A DNA stretch of 64,000 bases, from NCBI GenBank assembly GCA_947630065.1, contig CANRGE010000001.1:88281-152280 (forward strand). Reading direction: 5' to 3'. This stretch comes from an uncultured Clostridia bacterium (lineage in GTDB: Bacteria > Bacillota > Clostridia > TANB77 > CAG-508). A program made the position numbers and the translations under genes. Shown here in pieces: positions 1 to 49,808 of this stretch. The stretch's first letter is position 1. Every line of letters begins with the position of its first letter. The notes beneath the pieces were generated by a model. It was given only the letters and a program-made list of their open reading frames with translations. It did no database searches and was not told the origin of the DNA.

Positions 1-486
1 GATAAAACATCATCAACGATTTTCAAACAAGTTAAATATTATAATAAATTAGATGATGAAAAAAACATTCCACCGCAAAATCGTAAACCAATAAAAATTT
101 TTATAGATACTGATGGTGGAGATTTAAATGCAGCCTTTAGCATAATTTCAACAATTGAGACTTCTACTACACCTATATATACTTATAATATAGGTAAAGC
201 ATGGAGCGCGGGATTTTTTATTTTAGTTGCAGGACATAAACGATATGGTATGCCTTATTCAAGCTACTTATTCCATAATGGTTCTTGTAGTAATGAGGCA
301 GATGCGCATAATTTTATAAATTATAGTAATTTCTATAGTATGTAGCTAAAACAGTTGAGAACTATAATTTTAACAAATACAAACTTGACAGCAGAATTAT
401 ATGATTAGCACTATGCAAGTGATTGGTGGTTTGATAATACTGATGCTCTTTCAAATCATATAATAGATGAAATAGCAAAAATATGA
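1..486 (+). CDS. clpP: ClpP-like protease (5'-truncated; two in-frame TAG read as Gln)
   Basis: Frame 1 reads KPIKIFIDTDGGDL...IYTYNIGKAWSAG...YLFHNG...SDWWFDNTDALSNHIIDEI, giving ClpP Ser/His/Asp motif context. TAG at 343 and 406; ends TGA at 484-486. Confidence 0.85.
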
Positions 487-507
487 TAACATGGAGGATA
501 CTTAATA

Positions 508-1332
508 ATGGAAAATAAAGAAATAAAGGAAATGGAAGAGGTAACTGATATTATAAGACAAGCCCAAATGAGTAACACTCTTCAAAGTCAAGTAGACTTA
601 ATGATGAAAATAATAGAATTACCTGATGAAACTTTTGATATGCTATATCAAATAGTAATGAATAATTTTGAAAAAGCTTTTAATAATCCTAATTTTGAAA
701 AACAAGTACTTAAAAGCTTAAACGAAGAAATGTACAGAAATCCTAATTTTGATATTGAAAAAGAAGCTGAATCAATTCAAAAATTTATTGATTCACTTAA
801 AGAAGAAGAAAATATTAGTGATAATAAAAAGAAATTTTTAGAAAAAGTTCTAAGTTCTACCATAGTAAAATTTGTAAACTTATATCAAAATCCTCGTGAA
901 AAAGTTAAAGTTAAAATAGAAAAATTAGATGAAAATGCTTATATACCTGAATATGCTCATCAGCTTGATGCTGGCGCAGACATAAAAGCATTAGAAGATA
1001 CTGAAATTCAACCTAATGAAACAGTGCTTGTTAGAACAGGATTAAAAATTGCTATTCCAAAAGGTTATGAAATTCAAATACGTCCTCGTTCTGGCATGAG
1101 TCTTAAAACTGGTTTAAGAATAGCTAATGCGCCTGGTACAATAGATTCTTCTTATCGCGGTGAGGTTGGAATAATTGTTACTAATACAAGTTCCGAAACT
1201 TACACAATAAAACAAGGTGAAAAAATTGCACAATTTGTAATTGCTCATACGCCTATGATAATTTGGGAAGAATGTAAAATTGATGATGAAACAGATAGAG
1301 GAGAAAAAGGCTTCGGCTCTACTGATGCCTAA
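508..1332 (+). CDS. dut: Trimeric dUTPase with ~130-aa N-terminal helical extension
   Basis: Motifs AGADI, RPRSG, GTIDSSYRGE, IAQ and RGEKGFGST; GGAGG RBS at ~494. Confidence 0.95.
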   Translation: MENKEIKEMEEVTDIIRQAQMSNTLQSQVDLMMKIIELPDETFDMLYQIVMNNFEKAFNNPNFEKQVLKSLNEEMYRNPNFDIEKEAESIQKFIDSLKEEENISDNKKKFLEKVLSSTIVKFVNLYQNPREKVKVKIEKLDENAYIPEYAHQLDAGADIKALEDTEIQPNETVLVRTGLKIAIPKGYEIQIRPRSGMSLKTGLRIANAPGTIDSSYRGEVGIIVTNTSSETYTIKQGEKIAQFVIAHTPMIIWEECKIDDETDRGEKGFGSTDA

Positions 1333-2051
1333 TGAGCAAATTTAAGTTTGAAGATGTAAAAAAGTCTGTTGAGGATTAGGGTTGGCAACTCATATCTGAT
1401 TCCTACTCTAATCTAAATTCAGATTTATTAGCTCTCTGCCCCAATGGTCATGAAGTTCATTTTATTTATGATGATTGGCGCAACAATTCAGTAGAATGTG
1501 GAATATGCAATCATCTTAATCTTAAAAAAATCAATGAAAAGCCTAAAAAGAAAAAAGGTTATAGAATATTAGCTTTTGATTAGGCATCTATTACATCAGG
1601 TTGGTCTGTTTTTGAAAATAATAATTTAATAAATTATGGCTGCTGGACAAGTCACGGCAATAAATCCACAGAACGAATATCTCAAACAAAAGCATGGATT
1701 GCAAGTATGATAGAACAATGGAAACCAGATTAGGTAGTTTTTGAAGATATATAGCTTCAAAAATTTGAAAATGGTGATGCCGTTCTTGTATATAAAAAGT
1801 TAGCACATCTTTAGGGTGTTCTAAAAAATTATTGCTATGAAAACGGTATTCCGTATTTAATTGTACCACCTTCTACTTGGCGCAACTTTAATAATGTAAA
1901 GGGGCGCACAAGAACAGACCAAAAGAAAAATGCACAAATAAAAGTTTAGGCTTTATATGGTGTATAGGCAACAGAAGATGAGAGTGATAGCATTTTAATA
2001 GGTCGCTACGCCGCAGCCCAATATGAACTTATAAAAATTATTCCTTTTTAA
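1332..2051 (+). CDS. RuvC-like Holliday junction resolvase with N-terminal Zn-ribbon (seven in-frame TAG)
   Basis: With TAG=Q it reads CPNGH...CGIC, then RILAFDQASITSGWSVF...VVFEDIQ...KLAHLQGVL...VPPSTWR...EDESDSILIG. ATG overlaps the dut stop. Confidence 0.85.
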
Positions 2052-2132
2052 AAAAGGAACGACAATAGCCGTTCCTTTTAAACACCTTTATAATATTGGG
2101 AGTAGATGTTAGGGTCATCTACTCCCCTTTAT
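2051..2132. terminator. Pair of intrinsic terminators between convergent transcription units
   Basis: Hairpins aaaaggaacg-acaatagc-cgttcctttt and gggagtagatg-ttagggt-catctactccc. Confidence 0.8.
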
Positions 2133-2133
2133 T

Positions 2134-3017: not shown

Positions 3018-3037
3018 TAATCTTCACCTCCTTAAAA

Positions 3038-3424: not shown

Positions 3425-3435
3425 TAGTTACCACC

Positions 3436-4446
3436 TCAAAAATTACCGTAACCGCAGCAATTTACACCATTATAATTTAAGGATTGATAAGGTGAGTTTA
3501 CCACATATGCAGGACGTGCAATGGGCTGTAAAGAGCTAAGAAGCTGTTCAGTCTGTGCAGATTGAGAAATCTAAAAACGAGCGTTCTAAAGTTCATTTCT
3601 AAGAGTATCCATCTTTTCTTGATTCATGAAGTCAATTAATCTATCACCAAGACGGTCAATGCCTATCATTGTCTAATTCTAATTTTGCGCCATTAAATAT
3701 CTAATGTCATCTTGTCCACGTTCAATGTTACAAGCATTTGTATTTATAGCATTTACAACGCTATTAAAGCCATTTTGGTTATTGAAGTTAGACTGCATTA
3801 TTGACTCTCTGGTTTCGCAGCAACAATCTTTTACATTGCAGTTGGTAGTTGCTATTGCGCTCTGTAAACCGTTGAATCCATTACAAAGTGTTGCTTGAAC
3901 GTTGTTAAATCCGCTATTCATAGCAGACTATGTTTCAAATCCAGTATTGGTGATAGCATTATTTATACCACCAAATCCCTGACAAAGAGTACTTTGTAGA
4001 GCTGCCGTATTCTGTAAACCAGTTTTTTCTATAGTACAGAAATTATTAGCAAGATTTGTGCCAAGACTGGTGATTGCAAGATTATTCTGGTAAGCACCTT
4101 CTGTTGCGGCGTTCTGTGCAATTCTAACAGCATTATCTAAGTTGTTAAAATTGAAAGCGTCAGCCATGCCTTGTGTAGTAGCAGGTGAGCAGCAAGGATT
4201 ATAACCACTATTAAAACCAAAGTTGCCTGCGGGAATCACGACTGTACCACCACCGTTTCCACTATTGCCGTTATTACGACCGTTATTGCCCCAGCCATTA
4301 CCATAGCTGAAAAACAATACTATTATAATAATCCACCACAGACCCATCTCTCCGCCTAATAATCCGTTATTGTTTCCATTACCGTCATTAGTACCACGAG
4401 CGATAGCAAGTGCATCAGCAATGCTTAATCCACTTTTATCTTCCAT
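3436..4446 (-). CDS. Gly/Asn-rich membrane-anchored protein with CCCET motif (spore-coat-like cassette protein)
   Basis: ORF fragments 3928-4446 and 3679-3921 share a frame and join through TAG; ends TGA at 3436. Contains the hydrophobic segment WWIIIIVLFFSYG. Confidence 0.8.
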
Positions 4447-4485
4447 TTATTAAACACCTCTATAATATATATTTCACGCTTTCAA

Positions 4486-4719
4486 TTATTTAAGCAATGA
4501 CATTAAATCTTGAAGTTCGGTATTAAGATTTAAACCATTGTTTTCAAACATTTGAGAAGCGAGATTAACTAAAGCATCAGTTTGGTTGCCTTCTGCCATT
4601 TGTACAAGCGACTTGATGTTAGGGTCATCAATTTTGCCACTTTTAATCATGTCTAAGGCAACGTCTTTAGGATTTCGCCCTTTCATAATTTGGGCTATTA
4701 TTTTTATTCTCTAATCCAT
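4486..4719 (-). CDS. Small hypothetical protein (MDQRIKIIAQIMKGRNP...)
   Basis: ATG at 4719 overlaps the upstream stop; TAG at codon 3. Confidence 0.75.
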
Positions 4720-5162
4720 TATATATCAAACTCCTTTTTTCTTTGATTAGTATTAGAAAATCTTTCTTCTAAATCTGAAATTCTATTATTACAATTTTTA
4801 ACTTGTTCTATTAACTAATCCATTGAGATTGTTGTAGAATTAACTTTTTCATTTACAGGTTTTTCTTCTGTAGGTATATCTGTATTTTGGTTAAAGGGAA
4901 CAATTTTATAAGGGTAAAGTAGTGGATTCCCATTTTGCATAGTCTTTATATACATTACTTTTTCAGGTAAACAAAGAGCTATAGAAATCCCCGCGCCGAT
5001 TGGTACACTTGCTACTTCCAGTGTAGAATTTATATTATAAACATTACCTTGCGGCTAAGGAAATAAAAACTACATATTTGATTGTCCAGTTGTCCCCTAA
5101 CCAGACATTGTTGGTAAGGGAGGCTATACAGTTGAGTTCATACCATATCCGCTATATGACAT
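4719..5162 (-). CDS. Pro/Gln-rich hypothetical protein, first gene of the cassette
   Basis: GAGGTG RBS; MSYSGYGMNSTVQPPLP...QPQGNVYNINSTLEVASVP is open only with TAG=Q. Confidence 0.75.
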
Positions 5163-5292
5163 ATCATCACCTCTGTGATTTAATCTTTGCATTAAAAAGG
5201 TGAAATATAAAAATCTCAATTTTTCTGTGGCATTTTAATGCTATGAAAAATTCTATGTTTTTAACAAAAATTTTTGTAAGAATTTTTATATA

Positions 5293-5330
5293 AAAAACAA
5301 AAAAGCACCTAAAAAGGTGCTTTTGTTTTT
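5293..5330 (-). terminator. Intrinsic terminator after the tail genes
   Basis: aaaagcacct-aaaa-aggtgctttt hairpin flanked by A/T tracts. Confidence 0.75.
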
Positions 5331-5703
5331 ATTTTATAAATGATTCTAATAATTCTAATTCTCCCATTGTTAAGCCCAAGGGTTCTAATTCTTGTAGTGA
5401 AAAATATATGTCGGGGAGCTAAATTTCTAATTCATTTAATTGCTAAATAGTTTCTTGTGCCTACTAAAGAAATTCTTCTTTTATTTTTAAGCTGCCATCA
5501 GGTAACTATATGAAATTATTATTTTCATCTACTTCACAATATTTTGTTAAAGATTGAAACTATTCTTGCCGAATTTCATATTCAGATTTTAATGTTTTTT
5601 TAATTTTTAGAAATTTATATTGAGTTTCAATTGAAAAAACTTTTGTAGAAATTTTATTTAATAAAATTAGTAAAGGTTCTAATTGTTGTTGTTTAATTAT
5701 CAT
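5329..5703 (-). CDS. Small helical phage protein downstream of the tail tip (DUF1617-like by position and composition)
   Basis: 124 aa with TAG=Q: MIIKQQQLEPLL...CEVDENNNFIQLPDGSLKIKEE...LTMGELELLESFIK. Confidence 0.7.
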
Positions 5704-5713
5704 TTAATCACCT

Positions 5714-8700
5714 TCAAAAATCAAGAGTTACATTGGGGGAAGTTAAGACATATTTATTATTTAGGTCATTTTTTATTTCTCTAACTGCATAAAATAATTT
5801 TATCACGGCAGCAGACATATTAACTAAATTATTTACCGCTGAATCATTAAGAATATAACCACCACTATTTGATATAAAAGAACCAGCAATTAACTATTCG
5901 CTATATTCGTTTATTGATTCATCTAAGTCAATTTTTTCAGTTGATAATTTTATTCCTTTTATTTCTGATGAAGCTACTTTATCGGCAACATATTGACCTA
6001 AAGCTGTGCCGTTTTGAGATTGCATTATTTCATAATTCATTTTTACATTGCCACCACTATCCATTTGTATTGGTGCATTTTCTATGCTTAGTTCATCATT
6101 TAATAAGCCATTAGTATAAGCATTACTAATTCTTCCACCTATATATAAAGTTCCATTACTATCAACTGTAAATAAGTTAATAGCATTATTTCCATTACCT
6201 TTTACTATTGAAAGCAACCTATAACCATCACTGTTTATGCCACTTTTATTGTTAATATAAATACCAGTGCTTTTTGTTTCATCATCAATATTATTAGATG
6301 CATACATTTCACCTAAGAGACTAATTCTTGCACTTGTAGATTCACCATTAGAAGTAGAGAAAATCGTCCTACCATTATTATCATAAAGATAAAAACCAAT
6401 ACTTTGATTATCAGTTATTGATTCATTATTTATGAAATCTCCATTAACTCCATTATATTCATATCCTGCTCTTAATCTTACTTTGTTTCCCTAAACTAAA
6501 GATAAACCAGCTCTATTAAAAGTAATTCTATCGCTTAAATAATTTGTGTTGTTAGTTGATAATGGGTCACGATAAGCATTTATACCTGATTTATCCCAAG
6601 AGAAGTATAAATATCCAGAATCTGTAATTCTAATTTTCCCCGCATCTAAAGTTCCTGTTTTTATACAATCTGCATTTATGCCTTGCGGCGTAACTCCCAC
6701 TGTCCAATCAGTGCCACCTGTGTTAGAAAAGAAAATTCCCTAACCATTTATTTTATATTTATTATTGTGATTATTTAAGTCACTACCGCTTTGTCCTTGA
6801 TTATCAATAGTTATATTATTTTCTTTTGTATTAACTAATGTTAGATTATTGCTATCTAAAGCTCCTTGCAGACTTTGTTCACTAATATTCTGTAAAGCAG
6901 TAAAATTAGAAGAACGTCTATAAATATTTTCATTATAACTTAAAGACTAAACAGTTGCTGTGACTTGCTAAAATAAATCCTCAAATTGAGTTGTAAAATC
7001 CTAAATTTTTATAGAGTTTTTACTATTATCATCTAAATCATCTGTGGTTTCTGATACTAAAACTTTAAGATGATTTGGTAGTCCTGTTGATGGATTGACA
7101 CCAAACATACCTATATCTTCTACAAAAGTAGAATCAGCTATATCTAATTCATAATACTTATATTCAGGCTTGGAACTTAAATCATTAACACTGATAGTAT
7201 AGCTGACTTTAGGTATTGCACCTTGTGCCGCGACCTCTAAAGCTCCATGATAATAAGCATTATCAGATATATAATTCGAATCAGACCAAGTACCTTCTTT
7301 CAAAAAAGGTTCATATTTTTTGAAAAAATCAGTAGAAAGTTTATTTATTAGTTTTAAGAATTTTGACCTTTGTTTTTTCCATTCCTAAATTTGTAAATAT
7401 TCTTTATTAAATTGTCCTAATATTCCTGCGCTATAAGTATGTTCATTACGCCATTCATCAATATGATTCATATAACTGTCATACCACTTCAAAGGTGTTA
7501 AACCATTAACATAAAGAGTCTGTTCACCATTTGTATTATTAGTAAAAAAAGTATCTGAAACTAATTGATTAAAAATTGCCAATTGTTCATCTATTTTAAT
7601 CTAATAATTTAGTAAATTATCATTAGCTGCATTTGTTGTTGTTGCAGTTGGTTTTTGCAATGAACTATATTTATCAATCTATACCTAATATTTTCGTAGT
7701 TGTTTTTTTGCTGTTTCTATCCCCTCTAAATTTACTATTAGTTTAGATTCTAATTCTGTATAAGATTCAGATTCTAAATTTATAATTTTATTAGATAATT
7801 TATCATACTCATTATTATAATAGCCCAACGTTTTTAAATAGCCTGAATTAGAACCATTACCATATAAATCAGATTCAACTTGCTACTAATTTAATAGTCC
7901 TTTAGCAGTATAATAAGAAAAATCTAAAATAAAACTATCTTTTGATGGATTATCTAATGCCGTTTTAATTGAACATAAGCCAGTACTTGATATATCAGAA
8001 TCAACATCATCTACATATAGCTTTGTAACAATTTTATCACTCTAAATTGTTCTACTGATATTGGAAAGATTTTTTTCATATCTAAAGCCATAAGGATTAT
8101 TTTTTCCTTTTTCTGTAATATAGTACAAATTTTTAATCATAGAGCCGTCTGCATTTGTTTCAGCTTTTCCTATACTATTATGCTTAATACTATAAACAGG
8201 ATAACATTCAAAAACTTTACTAATTTCCTATGTTAAATTGAACCTATTTGATTTTTCACCTTTGAGAGTCCTAATTTTGCGGCAATGCTGCATAGCATGG
8301 AATCTATAAGGACAATAACCAAATTTTTGATAATAACAAGTATGATTGCCATTACCATAAGAACAGTCAGTATTTGTTACTGATGTATTACTTTTATAAT
8401 ACTCACAAGTACCTAAATCAATATAATTTGTTATAATTTCATAATCATCTTCTGTAATTTTAGAGCTGTCTAAAGGCAAATGTTCAAGTGTGCCATTATC
8501 TGATAAAAATTCTTTTTGATTAAATGTATCATAATGTGCAAGGAAAAACTTTATTATAATTGCTATAATTCTTTTTCTTAAATCATTTTGACTCATATTA
8601 GCTGCAACGAAATTCTAAATTTTTACAGTAGAACTTTCATTATAATATTTTTGAAGATGTATAAGAATTTTTGATATTGCTCCGTCATTTATATAATCTG

Positions 8701-11488
8701 ACATAATGTTATATTCTTGTACATATTTCTCTTTTATTTTATCGTTATATCTACAAATTTTATCTAATTCTTCTAAATTATTTAATATTGCAGAATCTTT
8801 TAACACTAATTGCTAAATAAAATAATTCTAAATTTCAAACGTGCCGCCTGGCATTATATCATCATCAAAAATTACTAAATTTCTCATACTTTTTTCTGTT
8901 ATAAAACTGCTATAATCATAATTTTCATTATTATACCAATAAAGATTTTCAGATGGTATATCTTTTGTAAAAAGATTCCTACCACTATATTTGAAAATAA
9001 TATTATTATTAGTAAACTAATCCGCACCTTTAGTATAAGCTTCAAAAAGTCTAACTTTATTGATTAGCATTAAATTAGGATTTTCTATAGCAAAAAATGG
9101 ATTTTCAATATCTTTTTTAGTTTTAAAAAGAAATGTTCTTGAACTAAGTGTATCATTATTGACTTTAAAGGGATAATTAGCATCTTCAATAAATTGTATG
9201 CTATCTCCATAATCCCAAATATTATCTACATTATTTGAATTAGCAAATTGTCTACCAGTAAATTCAATTCTTTCTCGTTCTGATATTGTATATTTTCCTT
9301 CACCTAATGAAATTCCTTTACCTATTATAATTTTTAAGTTATCAATTGATTTAGTAAAGCAGCTAATATTTAAACAATAAATTTTATCTTTTTCTATTTT
9401 TTTTTCTTGTCCTATTATACCAAAATTAACTATAGTGCCAGTTTCTAAATCCATATTTTTATCTATAGTTAATTCATTATTTTGAGTACCATTTCTATAT
9501 TTTACCACTAAAGAAAAATTAAGTTGAGGTACTCCACTATTATTAGTTTTCTTTGTTGGATATAAATATCTAATCTATTGCTTATTACCTGAAGTAAAAT
9601 ATTTTACAGGTTCAAAACATCTTTTTATTTTATTATAATTTTTTTTATTTATTTGACCCGTACTACTAATATCATTTTCATTATATAACTCATCTAAATA
9701 AAAAATTATCTAATAAGATTCCTCATTATTATTTTTTTTTGTCATAAAATAAGTTCCGTTGCTAAAAAAATAACCTTGTCGTTGAGCATCTGTAAGTATT
9801 GAAAAAACTGTTTTTAATTGAGAATCTAATTGATTATATTTCTAAGAATTAAGTTTCCAAACATAACCAATTGGATAACGAGGTGGAGTATAATAAAGGA
9901 AAGATAATTCAGTTTGTGAAGAAAAGTTATTACTATCTGACCGAGAACTTCTTAACTAAACTTTAGCAGAATCAAATTTCATTGATTCTGATTCACTTAC
10001 TAAATTCTATACTTCCCAACCATCTGTTGACTATATGTTTACGCCGTTTTGTATATAATTTCTTGCTAATTGTGGCACTATTTGTCGTGTATCTATCTTG
10101 GAGCAAACCTAATAATTTTCTGTCGTTCCCCACCAATCAGGGTTGGAAAAATTATCATTAAAATTAGAAGAGTTTTCAGAATAAACAGTAGTAAACTAAT
10201 CTATTTCTTCTGTTATATTTAATTCAGAACGATTAGCTATTGAAATACTTTTTCCTTTTATTTCAGCTAAATCATTAAGATTACTTAAATATCCATCATA
10301 ATATACACATTTATTTCCTAAACATTCTTTATAGGTATCAATTACATTAAAATCTTCTGCAATATATTTAAAAGTATGACTAACGTAAGCCAAACTATCT
10401 GTACCGCTTGCTAAACCTTTAGTCAGCTAAGTATCTTCAAAAATATACCAATAATCAGATTTAATATTTTCATTCCATTGCCGCGTTGTCATAAAATAAT
10501 GATAAGTCTTATCTAAAATCAATCCAGTTTCATCAATTTTTAATTTCTAATTTTTAGGGAAATAAATAAACTAAATATAATTATTTGGGTCAACGTTTCT
10601 CGGCGCAAGGGCATAGTAATTAGTATTAGGATAATACTAAGCTTCTTCTGTAGCCTATAAATCATATTTATCTTTAATTTCACTAATATTTTTATAATCA
10701 CAATCAGAATAACAAAAATCAAGCTAAGTATAAGGTACAAAAATATAATCATTAAGATTAGTACTTAAAGAAACTTCTTCATAATTATTTTTCCAAAATA
10801 TGCCTTTTTCCCTTGCTAAATCATCGCCCATTTCAGCTTTACGAATTTCTCCCGTTTCGGCATTAGTAATAGTTAAATTATCTAACTAAAAATTTATTTT
10901 ATAGGCACTTAATTTTTTGAACTAACTAATAGGAATCTTAAAAAGTTTTGTAGGAGTAAATTCTGTAAAATCACCCCAGTTATATTGAGGGGTATAAGTC
11001 CAAAGAGAACCATCTAAAACAGTTTCAGAAAAAGTGCCTATTTCTTCAACATTATTATATAATTCTTCATCAAAAGTTATGCCATATCCATTTCTTGACA
11101 ATTCGTCTATAAAAGAATCTGAACAAGTATATGTTTTCATATAACTTTTAAATTTCTTATCTTCTTTTATTGTCTTAATATAAAGTTCATACCATTTTTC
11201 TTTATAAAATAATTTTATTTTTCTTTCTGAAAATAATTCATCTATAAATTTATTTCTTACATATTTTCCTTCTCTACTATCAAAATATTTGTCAGGCATT
11301 TGAAAAGTTAAACTATTTGTACCATTAAGTTTTCGAGTGAATTTAACAGAAGTCGCCCGCCCCTCATAAGTCATATCATGTGCGCCAATAATAAAAAGCT
11401 TAGTTTCTTTCTTTTTACCATTATCTAACACTTCTTCTTTCCAAACGCTTATTTCATAAGGAAGTTTTTTTATATCTTCTAATGCCAT
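5714..11488 (-). CDS. Large tail tip / baseplate hub-spike protein (~1924 aa)
   Basis: Nine ORF-track fragments (10922, 10196, 9017, 8615, 8228, 7385, 7001, 6491, 5894) share one frame and each ends at TAG; true stop is TGA at 5714. N-terminal RKLNGTNSLTF and C-terminal GVTPQGINADCIKTGTLDAGKI are typical of tail proteins; follows Dit. Confidence 0.85.
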
Positions 11489-11508
11489 TAGAATTTTTCA
11501 CCTCTTTA

Positions 11509-13869: not shown

Positions 13870-13886
13870 TAGTCATTCCTCCATTT

Positions 13887-25656: not shown

Positions 25657-25670
25657 TTTAATCACCTCTC

Positions 25671-27713: not shown

Positions 27714-27760
27714 TATCCACTTTCACCTCCCAACAAAAAAACGACATTATAATAATGCCG

Positions 27761-28657: not shown

Positions 28658-28746
28658 AAATACACCTCCTAAAATACATATTCTAATTAAGAAGTATAAG
28701 ATTACTTTAATATCTCTAAAAAAATAAGATGGCATTATGTGCCATC

Positions 28747-30165: not shown

Positions 30166-30180
30166 TTAGTTCTCACCTCT

Positions 30181-32310: not shown

Positions 32311-32325
32311 TTGACCGCCTCCTTA

Positions 32326-34320: not shown

Positions 34321-34351
34321 TCTTTAACTCACCTCGACTAAAACTTTATAG

Positions 34352-34390
34352 AAAAAATGGCTATTGAACTAATTGATTCAATAGCCAATT
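34352..34390 (-). terminator. Intrinsic terminator after the major tail protein
   Basis: Minus strand reads tggctattgaa-tcaattag-ttcaatagcca-tttttt. Confidence 0.8.
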
Positions 34391-34403
34391 ATTCAATTAT
34401 TTA

Positions 34404-37280: not shown

Positions 37281-37292
37281 TTGTCAACCTCC

Positions 37293-38042: not shown

Positions 38043-38535
38043 TGATTCTAAACCTCATGGAATAAGCTCCTATTTCTTCCGTTAAAGTTGATAAATCAAA
38101 ACCTAAATAATTGATTTCCCCTAAACCATTTATTCTCTTATCCTATAAACTTTTTCTTATTTCACTCATTATAGCAAAAGGTCTAATTGTGTCACCAGTT
38201 ATTAACCATTCCTTAAATGGGCAATAAACAACAATATTAAGGACAATATTTTCATTATCACTATTTGATGTAATATCACTACCAGAAAAAATGATAACAA
38301 TTTTAGATTTAGTATTTTGTTCTTCTGCTGTTACAAGTGGCACAATACGAATCAATTTATTTAATAGAGAAATTCCATTTATTTGTTCAGGGTGTTTTTC
38401 TTTGTTAAGGGGGTCTAAATCTGTATTATCTAAAAGCATAACTAAATTTTCATTCTAAGTTAATCTTTTTGCAATTTTTAATAGATTAGTACCTAATTCC
38501 TATCCATATTTAACTTTAGAACAATCTAAATCCAT
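38029..38535 (-). CDS. Putative tail completion/terminator protein
   Basis: Extends fragment 38143-38439 through TAG in both directions; head-tail block position. Confidence 0.55.
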
Positions 38536-38546
38536 AGCTTCACCCC

Positions 38547-39275
38547 TTAACGATTGTTAAGGAAAAAGTTTATATCTTCCCCAACTAATATATCTTCAGA
38601 AGAACGCGGCTCTTCTTCGGTTAATAATTTATTACCAATATAACAATATGCAACATTTGGAATAGAAATTCCATTATCAGAACCCATAATTTCCCAACCT
38701 TTATTCATATATTCAAAATAAATGCCTTTAGTTAAAAAGTCAAAATTCTATGTAATAAAAGAACGATTACCAGAAGGTTCTCGATAACCTAAACCAGTCG
38801 TAATAATACTATCTACAGTAAAAGTTCCAGTTGCATTAACAAATTTAACAGGAATAGAATATAAAGTGTCGCCATATTCATTTGTGATGTTAATTTTAGA
38901 GTCTAAACAAATTAACTTAAATAACTAATAACCTTTTGTTAAATTTTCTTCTTTGAAAATTACAAGATAAATTTTTTCTATTTCTTTATCTTTAATTTTC
39001 TAATCTATAGTTAAAATGTCACCAGTATTCAAAGCCGCAGAGCTGGTTGACATCAGTAAATTACTTATAATCTAACTTTCAGACCATTTATTAGGCTGAA
39101 GCGAACAAATATCGTTTCTTGCTTCATTATTAACAGAAGTTAATTTAACCTAATACATACTTCTTTTAAGAAAAATTTCATTAAATTCTCTTTCTTTCTT
39201 GGTCTTAATTCTATCCTGTCTTGTTGTACCATCTTTATTTATTCTTTTCAAATACACATCTGAATAATAACTCAT
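38547..39275 (-). CDS. Putative head closure/connector protein
   Basis: MSYYSDVYLKRINKDGTTRQDRIKTKKEREF...; open with TAG=Q; ATG overlaps the upstream TGA. Confidence 0.6.
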
Positions 39276-39550
39276 ATTACATCTATCCTAAGTGTATCAA
39301 AAAGATTCATACATTCAAAAATTGTTTTCCTATAGTATTTAAAGGATAAATAGCGGCAAGCAGATAATTTTGAATAAAGAGTGTAATATTCTATTGTTTT
39401 ACTATTATCTGAATAACCACTTAATTCTATCAAAATTGTATCTAAAAATTTTTCCCATTCACCATCTTTTTCTCTCTCTCTAAGAAGTCCATAAAGTTTC
39501 TTTTTCATTTTATCCTTATAGGCTTCTTTTACAATTTCTTGCTAATTCAT
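39272..39550 (-). CDS. Small hypothetical protein of the head-tail block
   Basis: MNQQEIVKEAYKDKMKKKLYGLL...YYRKTIFECM; ATGA overlaps at both ends. Confidence 0.7.
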
Positions 39551-40014
39551 GTAATTTTTCTACCCGTTCTGCCGCCTGCTAAATTACCATAGTTAAATGG
39601 CTATCTATTAACAGACCTATAATATAATCTCTCTAAAGTTTTTGCTTCATTAACAACTTGGTCTTTGAGAGAAATAAAACTTTTTAATAAATTAGCTTGG
39701 GAAAAATCTTTTTCATCATACTACGTTTTAATGTTCTCCCATGAATCTATAGTACGTTTAATCCATTCAGCTTTCATAAATGTGGCTAAAACCTAAATTT
39801 CTGCTTGACCCATGGAATTATCTACAAAACATTCTTTTTCTTCATCTATATCAAGACTACATCTTGGAAATTTGAACTACGAAAGAGCTATGTTTAGAAT
39901 CGCCCGCCAATCTTTAAGAAACCATTCTAAATCTTCTTCATTATAACCAGTAGACCACTCATCTTCGTTAATTCTACTTAAAAAAGCGTCATAAACATCT
40001 AATAAAGTAGTCAT
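39547..40014 (-). CDS. Putative head-to-tail adaptor
   Basis: MTTLLDVYDAFLSRI...FKFPR...EIQVLATFMKAEW...DFSQANLL; position after MCP. Confidence 0.65.
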
Positions 40015-40018
40015 TAAA

Positions 40019-40546
40019 TCACCTTATATCAATCTGGTTTCTTTTTTCCTGTTCTTTTCTTTTTTTATCAGCTTCTTCCATTTCTGCTCTTTGTGAAATA
40101 GATTTCAATATATCTTTCCCCGTTAATTCTTTAAGCCACTCGCATTTTTCCATGTCTACTATTTTATTAGTAATTGCATAACTAATAAGACTATCAACCT
40201 AAACTTTTGTAAGATTACTTACTTCTTTCTTAAAAACAGGAAAAGGAATATTTTTCCAATAATTTTCCATTTTTGTAACATCAAGTTGTATTATATTAAC
40301 AGGCTCAACAGCATCAGCTGGTTCAAGTCCTAAATCAATTTTATCCTATAAATTATCAATATAAAGAATACCAGATTCAAACATATTACGGATTCCTGCG
40401 TCCCAAATAGCCTATTCAAGCAAAGAAAAAGGTATTTTTCTTGGTTGATTAAAAGTACTCCATTTAAGATTTATACCATATTCAGGTTTTTTAATACTGA
40501 TGTTACCTCTAACCATATTCCTTATTTCAACCATTCTATCTGTCAT
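40019..40546 (-). CDS. Hypothetical structural-block protein
   Basis: 175 aa open with TAG=Q; strong AGGAGGAG RBS. Confidence 0.7.
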
Positions 40547-40591
40547 TAAAAACTCCTCCTTTTAACTCACAATATTTATTATTGCCGAAAT

Positions 40592-40636
40592 AGAAAAATG
40601 GTAAGTGAGTTTTACTCACTCACCACTTCTTTTTAT
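40592..40636 (-). terminator. Probable terminator after MCP
   Basis: Imperfect hairpin tggt-g-agtgagt-aaa-actcact-t-acca followed by TTTTT on the minus strand. Confidence 0.65.
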
Positions 40637-40641
40637 ATATA

Positions 40642-41772
40642 TTAAGTAGCTTCGTATTCTGTAGGATATTTAGTAGGATATTTGTCAGCGTCTTGTAAAT
40701 CAGTATTTACATATACACACCAATCATAGTTAGTAAGTATAGCAACGCCAACTTTTTGCTGAACTTCTACTTCAAAACTTCTATCTCTGTGCTGCCAATC
40801 ATCAACTTGAACGCCACCCTCAAATACTATCTTAACAGGCTTATTACCATTGTTGGGGAATATATAAGCAACAGCAGGATTAGTTACAGTAGTTTCATTT
40901 GTTTCATCAGTATAAGATTGCGGAATCTCTACTATAGGACTGCCACGGAATGTTCTTATACGTCCATAAGCAGCAATTTCCTCTATATTACGAGGGTTAT
41001 AAACAGGAGTTGCATAGCCAGGTGCAGAACCAGCAGTAGGACTATTAGTTAGTGCATAAGTACCATAAATAGGTGCGCCAATAGCATCTGCACCCATTGC
41101 GGCAACAAATTCAGGAGCGGCAAAAATGGTAACACCATTGCCATAAGAGCCTGCAACACGACAAGCCTGTGCCATTAAATCTGCGTCAAAACCAGCAGAA
41201 ATATAACGGTTGTTTTCAGGTCTATCTTCTGCATTTACAGAAGCAAGTAAAGCTTTCTGAATTTCGCCGTAGAGTGCTTCTTGCAAGCCCTCTAAAAGAA
41301 TTTCAGTAGATTCAGCTATATCTTCTTCACCACGAATATAACGGTCATAATCTATATAAGCTGCACCGCCAATTGCATGACCACCAACTTCAAAGGTGTT
41401 GACATCAAGTCTAAAAGATTCATAAGCACCATTTAGACCAATTTCAGTTATAAATTGTTTAGCACGTCTACGACCTGTTTTTACTACAAATTGTGCTTTC
41501 TAACCATCAGGAACTGTTTTTATTTCTGCAAAAGTTCCCATAAAGGCTTCTACCTATTTAGGAAGAATTTCAGTATAAGCTTCTTGCATTATTTCAAAAA
41601 GGTCGTACTTATTTCTACGATAAGATGCATAGTCACTTGCTATTTTATGAATTTCTTCACTAAGTGCATTTTTTATGTCCGTATTACTGTATTTAGTCGG
41701 GTCTGGATTACGACCATAGAAAGAACATACAACTAAATCTTTTACTGCTTTTATATCTATATTATCGTTCAT
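40642..41772 (-). CDS. Major capsid protein (376 aa)
   Basis: Fragments 41554-41772 and 40642-41286 share a frame, with only two TAG seen. LFEIMQE...FAEIKTV..G.KAQF...YESFRLD...KPVKIVFEG; follows scaffold and decoration genes; downstream terminator. Confidence 0.85.
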
Positions 41773-41796
41773 TGTGTCTACCTCCTTTCCCTAAAA

Positions 41797-42459
41797 TTAA
41801 GCCACAGGCTTTTCAATAAACATTATTTTGAATGAAAGGGTTGTATCTGCGTTTGTATATACCTAAGTTACTACTCCATATACATTGCCGATTGCCTCTG
41901 ACGGGTCTCCACCAATAACAAGCTTGCCCTTAGAATCATTAGTTACTACTGCATATATAGGCGTATCAGAATTTTCTTTTAACTTTTTCTTTACATTCTG
42001 CCATACTTCAACAGAGGGCGAAACTTTTCCACTACTTGTAGGCTTTAAATCACCAGCATCGTCATACATAACAGTATTAGTACAAATTCTCATACCAGGC
42101 TCAACAAAACCTATACGGGGTAGATATTCACCACAAATCATGCAGAAGTTTCTACGTCCAGGTGTAAATTGATTATAAATTTTTTCAGTTGAGTAGTTAA
42201 TACCCATTTTATAACCTTTATCACATAATTCTTTAGTAGGAATAGTAACAATTCCCTAATCTTTTACAACTACTAAAAATGCACCATTTTCAGCATAAAT
42301 TTTTTCTGCTTCTGCTTCTGCGGAAGTCATAGGAAAATTAGCAGCGAACTTAGTGGGGTCAAGGCGGCATTGTGCCTCAATCATACCCGCTCTATTAAAC
42401 CATACCTGACTGGGTTCAATCTAACCAAAGCCTTTGCAATCAAATTCTTTAAGTGCCAT
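41797..42459 (-). CDS. Putative capsid decoration/cement protein
   Basis: MALKEFDCKGFGQIEPSQVWFNRAGMIEAQC...AENGAFL...YSTEKIY...PRIG; directly upstream of MCP. Confidence 0.65.
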
Positions 42460-44096
42460 TAATAATTACCTCCTTGTCTCTTTTTGTAATTATATAATAT
42501 CTTCTCTGCACCATTCATCGGCTCATTTTTATCAGAACCTAAATCAGTGCTAATCTTGTGGTAGAAATTAGTTTCAGTATCTTTTCTACTAAAGATAGAA
42601 GGACTATTATCATATGCAGCTGTACAAACTTCTTTCCTAAAATCTTCTACACTATATTTATCTATATCGGATTTAAAAGTTTCGATACTATTATCACTTA
42701 AAAACTATGAAAATTCATTAAGAATAGAAGTTTTTTGTTCAGTTTCAATATTTTTCTTGAAACCATTAAGTTTTTCGTTCTCTATATTAAGGTGTTGTAT
42801 TTGAGCCTCTAATACAGTTTTTTCCTACTTTAATTGTTCAATTTCGTTAGCAAATGATTCTTTTTCAGCCTCTGTTTCAGATTCAGCACCTTCCGCCACA
42901 GCCGTATCTTCTACAGATTCAACTGTTTCAACATCAGTCGCAGTGCCATTATCTGCCACTACGTCACTATTTTCTTCAATGACAGTTTCTTGTTCTTCCA
43001 CTTCGGCACAATCATTTTCTACATTTTCAAAACTATCTAATTGCTCTTTTATTTTATTAAAAGATTCAACTATAGATTCATAAGTAATACCAATGTTACT
43101 ATTTAAAAATTCATATTCACTTTCAGTAACATCAATCAATTTTACTTTTTCCGTTTTATCAACTTTTACTTCATCGTTATCCTTAGAATAATATACTCTA
43201 TAATATTCATTATCCTTAACGTTATAGCAAAGAGCATAATTATCATATATTTTGTCTAACTGATAATTGTAATTCCAGTTTTCAATACCATCATATTCAG
43301 GATTTAAAATTCTAAAAATTTTATATTCTATTTCACCAAAAGAAAGTTTAAATAAATCCTTTTCCATTGATATATCCTCCTCCTTTTTGCTAAAATTCTT
43401 TACATTATCTATTAAAAATTGCAAATCTTTTTTCAAACTATAAAAAGCTGCACCTTCAAAACAAGGTTCTGTTTCCATTCCAAGAACCTATAATCCAATA
43501 AGGCAGCCATTTAAAAAATGGTAATAAGGTTTGCCATCTTCCCAAATACGCCATTCGCCAACTAAAGAATCTCTATAAATTTCCATTGATTGAGGTTGTC
43601 CAGGAATTAACTTTGCCTCTGGATATAAACCAGTATAGTATAAAACGTCTGCACAAGCATAAGTTCTAACCACACCATCAGTATCAAGATAATCCTCCCA
43701 AGCAAAATTAGGTTCAGCCATTACTAAACCATAAATACGCCCGTCTGTATTATCTTCGCCGTGGTCTGAATAATCTGTTTCTTCTTCATTAAAAATTCCT
43801 TTAACAGGAGTATAAGGTAAAGATGCAATAAGCTAATTAGCAAAATCATCTGATATATAAGTACGATTTCTATTAAAACCAGTATAGAAAATTCTTACTC
43901 TACCTTTAGACATAACCTCATTTATAGGCTCTAATTCGCTACAAAGCGTTACTTCTAATTCAACAGGCGGCGTTTTTTCATCATCAGAATCCTCAATTTG
44001 CTAAGAAAATAATTCAGATATTTTAGCAAAGGATTTTGCAGCTTCTTCAATAATTTTTTCTGAAGCTTCCTAAAAAATTTTTGTTGAAGAGGTCAC
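42459..44096 (-). CDS. Prohead protease / scaffold fusion (putative)
   Basis: RVRIFYTGFNRNRTYIS...SLPYTPVKG...QSMEI...LGMETEPCFEGA, then an acidic coiled C-terminus; lies between portal and MCP. Confidence 0.72.
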
Positions 44097-45598
44097 TCAT
44101 TTTTCACCTCTGTTTCATCAGTATTTTCAGATTCCTAAGCTGATTCTTGGGAATCCTGTTCAGTCTATCTATCCTATCCATCAGAACTCTATCCTTTAGT
44201 TTCACCCATTGGCTCACCTGATTTTTTACCTGACTATGTATAAGAAGATTGTAGAGGTTTAAGAATTTCATCAAGTTCAAGTAAATCATTTTCTAACATT
44301 TTGAGATTAGAAAGATTTGTCTGGTCTAAACCAGTTGATAGAATAGGAGTCAAGAAACTATAGCCTAATGTAGCTAAATCTCTTGCACGAGTAGTATAAT
44401 CTGAACTATTATAATAACTAAGTGGTAAAATTATAAGTTTAAATCTAACTTTTTTATTTTCAAACTTATAATTTAATAAAGTAGTAAAGAAATGTGCAAA
44501 TCTAAGTCCAAGAATCATTGTTAAGGCAATATCATTATTAGTAGAATAAGCAAGTCCAGCTTCTGTTGTTGAAAAGAAAAATTCTTTTGACATGCCCGCA
44601 GATTCATAAATCAAATTCTGAACATCAGTAACCTCTGTCTTTTCATCATCTGAACTACTTAGGTCTAATAGGTCAATATTACAATAAGTAGTTAATACAT
44701 CAATGTCAGGATTATCAACAAGCATTTCTAATGCGCCGTTATGCATTAGTTCAGCCTCATCTGGTTCAAAAACCAAATCCAGTCCTTCTGTGCCGACTTT
44801 CTAAACTAAAATTCGTTTTAATGCTTGTAAATTTCTTTGTTTATCAATGTCCTTATAATCATCAAGGTCATCTAATAGTGGAATCAAATCTAAGAAAAAC
44901 GGCTTTTCTTCAAAATATGAAAAATAAATTCCTTGCTCCGCTGGCAAAAAAATCCATTTCTTACCTTTGTCACTTATATAAGACTTATATGCTTTCTAAA
45001 TAAATTTAGGATATGTTTTAAGAATTTCTTCTCTAATATCATCATCTCTAATTTTTTTGAAGAAGTCTAAATTAAATTCTACAATATCAACATCTTGCGC
45101 GTTCTTAAAACGGCTGCGGCAATAATCAAAAGGTAAATCCTAAATTACTACATTATCACCATCTTCAATTATTAGACCATAATATGCTCCTTTTGTAAAA
45201 ACTTCTTTGGCAAAAAGCGCACATTTTCTCTCTATCTAAAAAGTAGTACAAAAGTCAGAGGCATTATAATATGTTTGCGCTATCTTTTTATCTGAAATAA
45301 CATCTTTTCTATTTTTAAGATAAGGTACAAGAATCCAAGAGTAAGTTAAAAAAGTTGAATAATGTAATATAATTCTCTTATATAAACCATTAGTTTGAAA
45401 GAAGAACTCACTTAATGCCGCTCTCTCTATTGGATTTCCTTGTGACACTATCTAAACTATTTCATCTTTACTGTAAACTTTTTGTTTAGAGGAGAAAAAC
45501 TTACCATCAGTTTTTCTATAAGCATCTTCTGATGTTGCTATCATTTTTTGTAAAGCCGATTTGAATTTACTAATTCTTTCCAAATCTTTATTATCCAA
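44093..45598 (-). CDS. Portal protein (~501 aa)
   Basis: TTG start; SEFFFQTNGLYKRII...LPFDYCRSRF...PLQSSYTQSG; directly after TerL and of typical size. Confidence 0.78.
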
Positions 45599-47404
45599 TT
45601 ATTGTCCACCTCCCGTTCTATAAAAAGTAAGCTAACGTCTTTCTAAACCTCTATTGCGGCGGCGGCTTGTTTGTTCTTGTTCCATTAAAGAGATAACATA
45701 AACACCCATTTCAAGTGACGAAAACTTATCCTTTGTCATTCTCTTATTTATAGGTTCTACTGCTATTAAATTATTAGCTCCCGCTGGTTTAGTTCTTAAA
45801 TTCATAAGCTCATCAATTAAGTAACTTGTAAGTTGATGAGGTACAAGTCTTTGACTTCTATCTTCTATTTTCATTCGCTATCCTGTTTTTGTTGCCATTA
45901 TTTTTTCATAAGCACTTTTTTCGGTTATTAAAAAATCCATTCTTCCTGTGTCAATTTTTGCATATAATTTTGAGTGCATTTCACTGTTAATTTGCACCGT
46001 TGCTTTAATACCAAAAAGAATTTTTGGCGCATCTTTAGGCTAAATTTTTAAATATTCATCTCTATTTATAAAGCCATAAGCAGGATAAGTAATACCTGTG
46101 GCATAATCATAAGTAGGCTTAATCATTTCATCAGCCATAAAAATTCCAAGACCATTTATATCAAGGGCAACTTGACGAGGATTAAACTATTTTATTAATT
46201 TTTTGAGTTCTATGACTTGTTTGCCAAGGACTTTTTCATTTTCTGTTTTTCCTAAAACATATAAGTTGACTAATTTAATTTTAAAATTGCCATCATCTTT
46301 TGGATAAACTTTTAGGGCAGTACATACGGTCTAACAACCTCGCCGCGCTACGTCAACTGAAAGTACATAAAAATAATCTGCATTTTCACTAAAACGTGCC
46401 TAATTTTCAGGATTTACAATTTTTCTATGTGCCATTATTCTTTCATAGTTAAACCAAGAATCTGATGACATTCCTACGAAACGGCTCATATATTCACGTG
46501 CAAAATCTGCCTCATTAAAAGTCTATGAAGCTTTTAACTCATTTATAAAATCAGGCGGCAAAAGCCCACATTCAACAGGCAATCTATAATCACAACCCAT
46601 TATGAAAAATTTATTGGGATTTATTATTGCCATTTCCAATAATTCAATAGTTTTGTCATAAGCATAACTGTTTTTATCAGAAGCTGACGTAATCCAAATC
46701 TAAACCTGATGTGGTTCATTTTCATTAAGAAGTCCATTTGCCATTTTACGAGAAACATTCAACAGCGGCAAAACAATAGAGTTTATATCATCAGGCACAT
46801 GGTCACGGAACTCATCTATTATGCCGCCTCCGCGTCTACCACCACGCTAAGAACCTAAAGGACTTACGACATCAAATTTACTACCATTTCTAAAAGATAA
46901 ACTAACATAATCAACGCCATATGCACCATCGCCTATAAGTTCTTTTTTAAGTAAGGGAAAAATATCATAAATTTCAAATAATTTTTCTTTTGCTATTTTT
47001 GCTGATTGTGCTTTACCAGGCGCACAAATAAACACTTTAATGCCAGGTCTAAAAATGCACATTAAAAACATTCCTAAGATTGAAATAAAAGATTTAGAAA
47101 AAGCACGGGGCGCAATAGTACAAATACGACCATGGCGCAATATGGCTCTTAAAAAAATTCTCTAATAAAAAAATAGTTTGAAATGGGAATAACTGGGAGT
47201 AATTAGGTCAATAAAGCAATCAGGATAACAAATCCAATAGTTACATATCTATTCATACAATTCTCTATTGTCTTTAATACGTTGTTCTGTGATTAGTGCG
47301 CCTTTTTCAAGTTCAATACCATCTTTATAATATTTTTTTGTAGCTTGTTTAACAACATAATGAAGAGAATTAAGAATTGAGTTAGGCATATTTATTTTTT
47401 CCAT
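45599..47404 (-). CDS. terL: Terminase large subunit (601 aa)
   Basis: Q-motif LFFYQRIFLR (Q encoded by TAG), Walker A APRAFSKS, Walker B GIIDEFRD, nuclease SVDVAR...KDKFSS. Confidence 0.92.
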
Positions 47405-47413
47405 TGTTACACC

Positions 47414-48352
47414 TTAATCTATGTTAAGCCTAAATTCTTCTTTCTCTTCATCATCTTGCTCAACTTCCTAATATCTTCTAAATTCCTACTCATCAAAATT
47501 TTCTCCCTCTATTTGTGCCGCGATGGATAAATTCTTAATTCTTTGTTCTATTTCTTCGGCTACTCCAGATTCATTTACATATAAATAGCGCAACCAATTT
47601 TTTATATTTTTAATAGTAAAATCAACTTCATCTCTATTAACATCATCATAATATTTAAATTTTGTTCCTATTTTTTCCAAATAAGCTATAACCTCTCCTG
47701 CTGAATCAAATTCCTAAGCGTCTTTAATATTTTTAGAGGTTAAATTAGAAAGCTTAGCTAAACTATCATAGGATTGTAAATCTCTTGAAAAGTCTGTACC
47801 TGTTCTAATTTTATTTTCAATTATAAGAGAAATCTTACAAAGTTTAAGAGCCTAATCTTCATTTAATGCTCCGACTATATTTTGAGATTCAACTAAGCCT
47901 TTATGCAAATTTTCTAAATATTCTAATTCACTATCATCATATGATTCTCCCCATTTTCTAATTAAAAATCTATGTTGTCTTTCTTTTTCTGCTGGCAAAG
48001 CATCTTCAACTCTATTTTCTTCATCTAATGTTAAATAAACATCATTATATTGTTGCCAATCCAATGTTTCATATGATTTTTCTCTAAAAATTGCGGCGTA
48101 AACACCAAAAGCATCTTTACCATTTCCTTTATAAATTTTATGCCATTCCTCTGGAACAAAAGGAATGTCAGCCCATTGACAAATCTTATTAACTGTATTC
48201 CATTTTTCATTTTCAGGAGTCTATGAAATAATACTTGCAATACACTCACGGCATATTGGCAATGCGCCGCGATGTATTATTGACTATTTACAAGCTATGT
48301 AATGCGCCGCAGTTTTATCTTGTCCACACCTTTCACAACGTCTAAGAGCCAT
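47414..48352 (-). CDS. Putative terminase small subunit with N-terminal Zn-finger
   Basis: CERC...PICREC...CQWADIPF...KWGESY..ELEYLE; immediately upstream of TerL. Confidence 0.6.
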
Positions 48353-48387
48353 TTAATCACCTCACATCTTTGGCGGCGAAGGTAATA

Positions 48388-48585
48388 TTAACCTACGACT
48401 TGTTTTGCCAATTTTAAAATTTTTCTTCTTCTTTTTCTTGGTAACTAACTAAAAGCATACAAAATATTAGTAACATAATCATCAAATTCTTCTTCTTCCT
48501 AAACTCCCATCAAATTTCCAAAGCCCATAATTTCAACAAAATTCATTTTCTTAAAACATTCTAAAAGCTTTTCTAATTCTTTCAC
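48388..48585 (-). CDS. Small hypothetical protein (65 aa)
   Basis: GTG overlaps the upstream TGA; open only with two TAG=Q. Confidence 0.55.
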
Positions 48586-49808
48586 AACATTTTCACCCCT
48601 TGCGGCGCAACATCATCATAAACAATAATTGGAAGTTTTAATCTTTTTCTTCTATCACATTCTTTACATCTATTGGTTAGTCCATCAACTGATTTATTCT
48701 TTTTAATAAAATTTCTGGAATCACGCAACTTTATGCTTTTACAACAAACACATTGTTTCCAAGCCTTTTCATAATCTTTTGCCAACCATTCATCATAATT
48801 AAGTTCTACAGCCTAAATTATTTTGTCCAAGGTCTTAACATAAATAGTGCTAATATAATTAGTCTGATGAAAAATTCCCAATTGTTTTACTAACTAATCC
48901 TAAATGTCTTTATTGCATTTTTGCTGTTTTTTTAGTTCTAAAATAAATTCTTGTTGAGGAGAAAGATTCGCCATTTTTTGATAAATTTCAAAAGTCCAGA
49001 TTAACTCCCACAACGGTGCAGCTTTTTCATCTTCTACAAAAGAAACTATATTAGCCCAGTTATTTATTAAGTAATATAAATGGGTTCTGTTTCTAAAATT
49101 AAAATAAATTTTGCCCTTACTATTCCATTCTTCTATTTCTTCATCAGTTACTGCAATAGCAGGTTCAGACTTATCATAAAAAGGTTTAATAAAATTGATG
49201 TCATTAGAACTTTTTGCTGTGCCGCGGGGCAAAACTGGATAAGTTAATTGAGAATTTAATGGGTCGCCATAGTACTTTAAGTAATTTTTTTCAGTACCTA
49301 TGACTGGATAAAACGAGTCCATTAAATAGTACTACTAAGTTCTAAGCTAAATAAGAAAATGTTTTAACAAATAAGCTTTTTTCTAATCAGTAAATTGTTT
49401 ATTTTTTTTCCTATTATTGCTGTTTAAAGCTGCTTGCCATTTATCAATTTCTTCCCAAAGCTCTTCCATTCCTGGAATTTGTTTAGCTTTTTCTTTATCA
49501 ATAGTTGGCTTAACTCTTTTATAGACAACATCATCATTCTAAAGCTAACATTCATCAAAACTTGGTGATTCCATTAGTTCATCTAAAGAAAGAAATTTTT
49601 GTTTTTGATAGGAATTAAATTTAGTTTTAATTTGAATTTCTTTGCGGTCTACTGATGATGTGCCATTATTATCTTTTCCATAAAGAATGTAATTGCTAAG
49701 AGTTTCAATTTCAAGAGGTGTTAAATTTGAATTACAATCTATAATATTTTTGACTTCTTTTAATCTATCTTTTGCAGAATAGATATTGAAGTCTAAATTA
49801 AATTTCAT
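48582..49808 (-). CDS. Putative DNA-binding regulator: sigma region-4-like HTH plus C-terminal Zn ribbon (408 aa)
   Basis: Three fragments in one frame; LSPQQEFILELK...NKDIQ...NYISTI, then KQCVCC...NRCKEC; first gene of the late block. Confidence 0.65.

Follow-up and report, generated by a model that had tools for sequence, protein, structure and literature searches.

TAG is read as a sense codon, very probably for glutamine, in a large siphovirus-like phage binned with an uncultured Clostridia bacterium

Many gut phages are already known to reassign TAG to glutamine (Gln). Code 15 has been confirmed by metaproteomics in crAss-like gut phages (Peters et al. 2022, PMC9523058), and Borges et al. 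report TAG read as Gln with phage suppressor tRNAs, a bias towards late genes, standard-code sister lineages, and recoded intron endonucleases. Phass-1 is a TAG-recoded gut phage of ~136 kbp with tRNA-CUA genes, reported to have no aminoacyl-tRNA synthetase of its own (Babkin et al. 2023, PMC10607447). A model in which the suppressor sets the timing of expression has also been proposed for recoded gut phages. Here we describe a 64,000-nucleotide stretch (the window) of contig CANRGE010000001.1 (C1; assembly GCA_947630065.1), assembled with an uncultured Clostridia bacterium, which we interpret with high confidence as the late half (packaging, head and tail genes) of a siphovirus-like phage of ~153 kbp that reads UAG as Gln by means of its own tRNA-CUA.

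Several parallels and departures emerge when this phage is set beside the described systems. It resembles the crAss-like code-15 phages in assigning TAG to Gln, as we read it, in a phage whose host, here a putative one from binning, uses the standard code (PMC9523058), but it is siphovirus-like, with distal tail (Dit) and tape-measure genes; moreover its bin is without a detected glutaminyl-tRNA synthetase (GlnRS), such that charging would pass via glutamyl-tRNA synthetase (GluRS) and GatCAB. The closest cultured relatives of its terminase large subunit (TerL) are large siphoviruses of Bacillota, namely Geobacillus virus E3 (39.5% identity), Alicyclobacillus phage KKP_3916 (39.1%) and Enterococcus phage H1 (38.8%). 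As in the clades described by Borges et al., there is a suppressor tRNA, recoding centres on structural genes but varies among those for replication, and a recoded homing endonuclease lies within a group I intron; the genome size is also near that given there for the Agate clade (154 ± 27 kb), although neither an aminoacyl-tRNA synthetase nor a release factor of the 'code change module' described there was found on C1. As in Phass-1 (PMC10607447), reading with table 11 breaks up the genes for TerL, portal and tape measure at TAG; however, close similarity to Phass-1 was not found, its TerL being just 33.4% identical and thus below that of Geobacillus virus E3, and Phass-1 is reported to have three suppressor genes among 36 tRNAs, compared to one among about 11 here.

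C1 is 153,374 bp in length with 28.7% GC and belongs to a bin of 92 contigs (2.15 Mb, GC ~27%, 96% complete); the window spans C1 88281–152280, and coordinates are window positions unless marked C1 or with an L-number, which denotes the record of a locus. Open reading frames (ORFs) were counted at a threshold of at least 150 aa and coverage from open frames no shorter than 150 codons, with 24 contigs of the bin other than C1 serving as controls for the reading of the code. No terminal repeat was found on C1, the sole end-to-end match being inverted, 76 nt long and 81.6% identical. Logan contigs from two runs of the likely source sample reproduce positions 22687–26000 with zero differing letters, although they come from the same sample and are not independent.

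The ORFs of this phage show that TAG is a sense codon. Under table 11 the window contains 19 ORFs of the threshold length, compared to 36 when TAG is read as Gln, each ending in TAA or TGA; this bears out the original prediction, made from the letters alone, that the fragments ending at TAG join into genes closed by TAA or TGA. With TAG read as Gln, the minus-strand ORFs run head to tail from 49808 down to 3436, and include products of 1924 aa (34 TAG), 1861 aa (51 TAG), 958 aa and 786 aa, with intergenic gaps in this late block that are mostly 0–50 nt and never longer than 221 nt. There are 289 in-frame TAGs in the 14,920 codons of the late block, all in frames without TAA or TGA. Coding density, the comparison proposed as a check, shows the same pattern, with open-frame coverage of C1 rising from 0.37 under table 11 to 0.75 with TAG as sense, compared to 0.41 with TGA as sense; the 24 control contigs have table-11 coverages of 0.69–0.97 and gain just 0 to 0.04 from TAG as sense. 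A further control with TAA as sense was uninformative, as all contigs of this AT-rich bin gained ORF coverage from it. A nearby Shine-Dalgarno motif plus start codon accompanies 18 of the 289 internal TAGs and 19 of 361 CAA controls, but 17 of the 35 TAA/TGA ends; start signals are thus as rare at TAGs as at the CAA controls, and the internal TAGs are unlike gene ends. No ORF on C1 requires TAG as a stop, and the phage ORFs end in TAA (103/127) or TGA (24/127). At the +4 base, no significant difference separates TAG from CAA codons (chi-square p=0.06), and the TAGs are distributed almost uniformly within genes (Kolmogorov-Smirnov p=0.035), with slight enrichment in the first tenth and depletion in the last.

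We note that in 8 of 163 C1 ORFs the first in-frame TAG lies no more than 25 codons from the TAA or TGA end (e.g. C1 23382–25064, 1232–2017 and 45487–46056). In these eight, ribosomes could terminate at TAG at first, while the suppressor is still scarce, and read through it later in infection, adding a short C-terminal tail.

The positions that TAG occupies are Gln-like. A TerL search yielded 17 related IMG/VR loci (52–64% identity; the longest contig 170 kb), and the window proteins, with X at each TAG, were compared to these by tblastn and the aligned subject codons read. Among 817 subject codons opposite TAG, 288 are CAA (187) or CAG (101) and 48 are TAG, with Lys (80) and Glu (62) the next commonest; genuine CAA/CAG codons of the query behave likewise, 508 of 1364 lying opposite CAA or CAG. 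When the substitution profiles of the 20 residues were fitted to the 769 TAG-aligned residues, Gln had the highest mean log-likelihood per residue (−2.345 nats), followed by Lys (−3.263 nats), and among the 56 TAG columns where five or more residues align, no residue other than Gln is the majority in more than six. All four TAGs cited in the original prediction (34303, 30805, 29008 and 47162) are present on the minus strand in the peptide contexts described. The last of these, in the TerL Q-motif (residue 81), corresponds to Gln in all five cultured standard-code phages compared, encoded by CAA in four and CAG in one; the counts for Gln at other TerL TAG columns are 3/5 (residue 235), 2/3 (residue 509), 2/5 (residue 358) and 1/5 (residue 406), and the remaining six of the 11 columns have none in these phages. 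The other three cited TAGs fall inside five tandem paralogues, whose alignment had been taken to identify Gln; the two quoted columns are as described, but over all five genes just 6 of 112 residues opposite TAG columns are Gln, which is insufficient alone. The assignment to Gln is nonetheless borne out by the codons of relatives that use CAA and CAG, the residue profiles and the TerL Q-motif.

A tRNA search of the window itself found none. Elsewhere on C1, ARAGORN identifies ten tRNAs between 43.5 and 52.4 kb, to which Infernal adds an eleventh, and this cluster of ~11 sits among replication genes. It includes a tRNA-CUA at C1 complement 43941–44015, 44 kb before the window (ARAGORN; Infernal 62 bits), which is unique among the 45 tRNAs of the bin. 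It is Gln-like: among those 45 it most resembles the phage tRNA-Gln-UUG (75%), followed by the host tRNA-Gln-CUG (72%), bases 1 and 72 form a U1-A72 pair, and its anticodon loop is that of the host tRNA-Gln-CUG save for G36 to A. The Escherichia coli supE (glnV) amber suppressor is a tRNA-Gln with its anticodon changed from CUG to CUA, charged by GlnRS and only partial in its suppression, and thus differs from its parent by the same change. Unlike supE, the tRNA described here is carried by a phage, has hundreds of codons to decode with high efficiency, and would do so in a host in which no GlnRS was found.

A suppressor tRNA or a release-factor modulator had been expected elsewhere in the genome, and the tRNA-CUA answers to the first of these; release-factor genes were looked for on C1 and not found. 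Searches for GlnRS and release factor 2 (RF2), proposed alongside that for tRNA-CUA, found neither gene on C1, and in the bin no GlnRS above the cut-off; the bin does encode release factor 1 (RF1) and GatB. The TAG-free 'methyltransferases' of the tRNA cluster were considered as release-factor methylases and ruled out, being ordinary N6_N4 DNA methylases. No hepatitis delta virus-like or other ribozyme was found by Rfam (E up to 0.1) in the 16-kb tRNA region, and by eye the 3′ flank of the tRNA-CUA contains no obvious P1 pairing as for a theta-ribozyme (PMC10879173).

The relatives recovered with TerL fall cleanly into a tRNA-rich recoded group and a standard-code group with one tRNA. Nine of the 17 loci have 16–49 in-frame stops in the matched genes, 231 of these 236 stops being TAG, whereas the other eight have 0–1. 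In a tree from a concatenation of four late proteins, TAG columns being entered as gaps, the recoded members lie on one side of a branch with a Shimodaira-Hasegawa-like approximate likelihood ratio (SH-aLRT) support of 99, and the window's phage is a deep branch among them. The whole records of four recoded relatives contain 6, 14, 9 and 9 tRNAs, and ARAGORN identifies a tRNA-CUA in three of the four; in the fourth, the orthologue of its neighbour's tRNA-CUA is interrupted within the anticodon loop by a 45-nt insert, and moving the borders of this insert by two bases gives a CUA anticodon. Three standard-code relatives (at least 90% complete) have a single tRNA each, tRNA-Lys-UUU, and no tRNA-CUA. 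These assignments come from Rfam tRNA searches and ARAGORN, as a BLAST query with the 75-nt tRNA-CUA matched nothing in the complete records of nine relatives. TAG ends just 3 of 101 ORFs in the standard-code relatives, in keeping with the sparse use of the recoded stop by close standard-code relatives that Borges et al. describe.

Inserts of 45–50 nt in the anticodon loop are found in several tRNA genes of the recoded relatives (L033:3340–3461 and 4158–4291, L030:2811–2936, L032:782–915, and L035:3929–4062), one of which is the probable tRNA-CUA of its phage. They share a common hairpin whose outer stem appears by eye to covary, and are too short to be group I introns; 'enigmatic' tRNA introns are reported in Lak phages (PMC6784885).

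Recoding is genome-wide but graded. TAG is present in 35/35 ORFs of the late block (3436–49808) at 19.4 per 1000 codons, where it makes up 41% of TAG+CAA+CAG, in 7/8 ORFs of a tail-fibre-like region at C1 70–82 kb (11.4 per 1000), in 39/75 ORFs of the replication, nucleotide-metabolism, tRNA and lysis region of C1 (7.8 per 1000), in 7/22 ORFs at the C1 left end (3.7 per 1000), and in 1/13 ORFs at window positions 49809–64000 (1.2 per 1000), the sole TAG-bearing ORF there sitting in a tandem repeat. The late bias thus agrees with the original placement of recoding in the structural and packaging genes, but TAG is not restricted to these, as it also occurs in RuvC-like, ClpP-like, homing-endonuclease, RecJ, primase, DnaB and endolysin genes. 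PhoH and endolysin carry TAG, endolysin having three. Large genes free of TAG include those for the N-terminal part of DNA polymerase, both topoisomerase II subunits, ligase, ThyA, two DNA methylases, RNA ligase, and dUTPase. The segment 49809..64000 has a low coding density and dense palindromic repeats, is almost free of TAG, and probably contains early genes; all 48 C1 copies of the palindrome GTTATATAAC lie at C1 130–153 kb, compared to five in the bin's remaining 2.0 Mb, and this segment may be an early promoter/operator region or an origin region.

We propose that UAG is decoded as Gln in the following manner. The phage amber suppressor, with its CUA anticodon, would derive from a tRNA-Gln and would be charged by an indirect host route, with a non-discriminating GluRS followed by GatCAB amidation, a route suggested because the bin has GatB and no GlnRS. 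Accumulated tRNA-CUA would out-compete RF1, and the gradient of TAG would delay synthesis of the late proteins until the suppressor is available; this timing model is suggested because TAG is nearly absent from the presumed early region, sparse in the replication genes, and accounts for the large share of late Gln-type codons given above.

Several observations weigh against this account. The residue is deduced from homology and tRNA likeness, many of the TAGs are at variable positions, Gln is the majority in just 21 of the 56 TAG columns, and the 17 relatives share kinship and so are not independent samples. The link between phage and host is one of binning alone. RF2 was not found in the bin, although 24/127 phage ORFs end in TGA, and no gene on C1 was recognised as weakening RF1. 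Some replication genes carry TAG (RecJ 6, DnaB 6, primase 4), and any early/late switch is thus not clean. Lastly, the tape-measure gene contains a total of ~75 TAGs and, by arithmetic, would need suppression of ~95–97% per codon. We regard it as a minor possibility that an unrecognised phage function blocks RF1 at UAG yet spares UAA, or drives the tRNA-CUA to extreme abundance; the block would have to be selective because RF1, the sole class-I factor found in the bin, must still terminate the UAA stops that close 103/127 phage ORFs. A candidate for such a function may sit among the many TAG-free phage genes that have no assigned function.

Alternatives to the assignment of TAG to Gln by the phage tRNA-CUA are considerably less attractive. 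It is very improbable that TAG is sense but specifies another amino acid, be it Glu from a GluRS-charged and unamidated tRNA-CUA, Lys, Tyr or pyrrolysine. With no GlnRS above the cut-off in the bin, charging would start with Glu, and Lys (80/817) and Glu (62/817) are the next commonest residues at TAG columns; even so, the Gln profile is ahead of both by ~0.9 nats per residue over 769 residues, the invariant Q-motif column of TerL is Gln in 5/5 cultured phages, and GatB is present in the bin. ARAGORN labels the tRNA-CUA 'Pyl', but does so solely from the anticodon, and the U1-A72 pair and ordinary cloverleaf are unlike the shape of tRNA-Pyl. Even less probable is that TAG is read through by a near-cognate host tRNA-Gln or a host-encoded suppressor, the phage tRNA-CUA being incidental: while the tRNA-Gln-CUG of the bin could misread UAG at a low rate, low-level readthrough cannot complete ORFs with 34 and 51 TAGs, the 45 tRNAs of the bin hold no second tRNA-CUA, and among the relatives the presence of tRNA-CUA tracks recoding.

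We consider it least likely of all, and scarcely credible, that the TAGs are true stops in a decayed prophage or in short genes, or arise by assembly or base-calling artefacts that turn CAG into TAG. Table 11 yields only fragments and the contig lacks a terminal repeat, as such an explanation would have it. Against this, TAG alone interrupts the frames (289 TAG and zero TAA or TGA over 14,920 codons), the joined ORFs match full-length phage families, start signals are missing at the TAG positions, and the trait is common to ten related lineages; the two Logan runs also repeat 22687–26000 unchanged, albeit from the same sample and hence not independently. Reading of TAG as Gln through the phage's own tRNA-CUA is thus the explanation we favour.

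The contigs of the bin other than C1 use the standard code (code 11), with TAG ending 160/834 long ORFs. No match to a CRISPR (clustered regularly interspaced short palindromic repeats) spacer was found between C1 and the other bin contigs; a single 26-nt exact match to C1 was rejected as a spacer, being an AT-rich coding stretch without a repeat array. We note that RF1 is the only class-I release factor found in this bin (G000), and that across 13 genomes of the host genus (including G010–G021) RF2 is intact in four, frameshifted or decayed in six, and undetected in three, the damaged copies being either divided at a frameshift near residue 238 or interrupted by many stops. TGA closes 71/834 long bin ORFs, which do not continue past it, and no in-frame stop interrupts rpoB in the four genomes, of five searched, that gave a match.

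The late block (3436..49808) contains 35 minus-strand ORFs, named with the PHROG database, which begin with a sigma-like gene and continue with an unknown gene, TerL, the portal, head and connector genes, the five paralogues, the tape measure, Dit and a 1924-aa tail protein. The first gene (48582..49808; 408 aa, 9 TAG) is weakly similar to sigma factors (phrog_5767 'sigma factor', E 6.2e-13), with no match in Pfam at 0.01, and the protein of no known family between it and TerL may be the small terminase subunit. TerL (45599..47404; 601 aa, 11 TAG) matches phrog_2, phrog_9 and phrog_15503, with its Q-motif TAG at 47162–47164, and is followed by the portal gene (44093..45598; 501 aa, 10 TAG), which matches phrog_2739 (E 6.8e-64). 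The probable major capsid gene (40642..41772; 376 aa, 2 TAG) matches phrog_4088, of unknown function (E 4.5e-48), and its role is suggested by gene order alone. It has the lowest TAG share of the late block (2/14 Gln-type codons), compared to 39–48% in the portal, TerL and tape-measure genes, which fits with the shunning of a costly codon in the most abundant protein. The five tandem paralogues (27761..37280; 324–958 aa, 4–12 TAG each) all match phrog_2729, a virion structural protein; they are highly diverged from one another and are located where the tail tube gene is expected. The Dit-like protein (11509..13869; 786 aa, 11 TAG) matches PF05709 (Sipho_tail), phrog_33 and phrog_202, and the large gene that follows (5714..11488; 1924 aa, 34 TAG) has no PHROG or Pfam match at 1e-5 and is assigned a tail role from its position after Dit. 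Three plus-strand genes lie to the left of the late block and encode a ClpP-like protein (1–486; 2 TAG), a TAG-free dUTPase (508–1332) and a RuvC-like protein (1332–2051; 7 TAG).

The tape-measure gene, also on the minus strand, appears from its alignments to be divided into at least three or four exons. The putative first exon (24001..25665; 23 TAG) matches tape-measure PHROGs and PF10145, positions 3–107 of 201, the match stopping at the end of the ORF, and the last and largest (13887..19523; 51–52 TAG) matches the tape-measure family phrog_4211, its open frame extending to 19523. The intervening stretch (19530..24000) contains intron cores, endonuclease ORFs and a small exon piece. Two group I intron cores are found at 19530–19884 and 21160–21465 (Rfam RF00028, 68.3 and 79.6 bits, respectively), and three ORFs match HNH or homing-endonuclease PHROGs (19843–20733, 21438–22457 and 23071–23838, with 7, 2 and 5 TAG, respectively); the small exon piece, at 20816–21130, corresponds to PF10145 (PhageMin_Tail) positions 131–192. 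Among reads placed at 85% likeness, and thus from relatives, a contig from another study links 22638 directly to 24016, skipping 1377 nt, and a variant from the same sample has 158 nt in place of 19827–20950. The DNA polymerase is similarly encoded in two ORFs before the window, at C1 81886–86954 (L025:5886–8411 and 9437–10954), with an N-terminal part of 841 aa that is TAG-free and a C-terminal part of 505 aa with 2 TAG, between which lie ~1 kb and a small ORF; a further intron or a split gene may account for this.

Correct annotation of this phage needs table 15, as table 11 fragments nearly every late gene. With this phage, the known TAG-recoded phages gain a large siphovirus-like lineage whose hosts are apparently rabbit-gut Clostridia, and its standard-code sister group, with one tRNA compared to 6–14, offers a tidy natural comparison for the origin of recoding. 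It would also be a case of code 15 in use where the host seems to form Gln-tRNA solely via GluRS and GatCAB, and the TAG load of one essential gene sharpens the question of how such phages overcome RF1.

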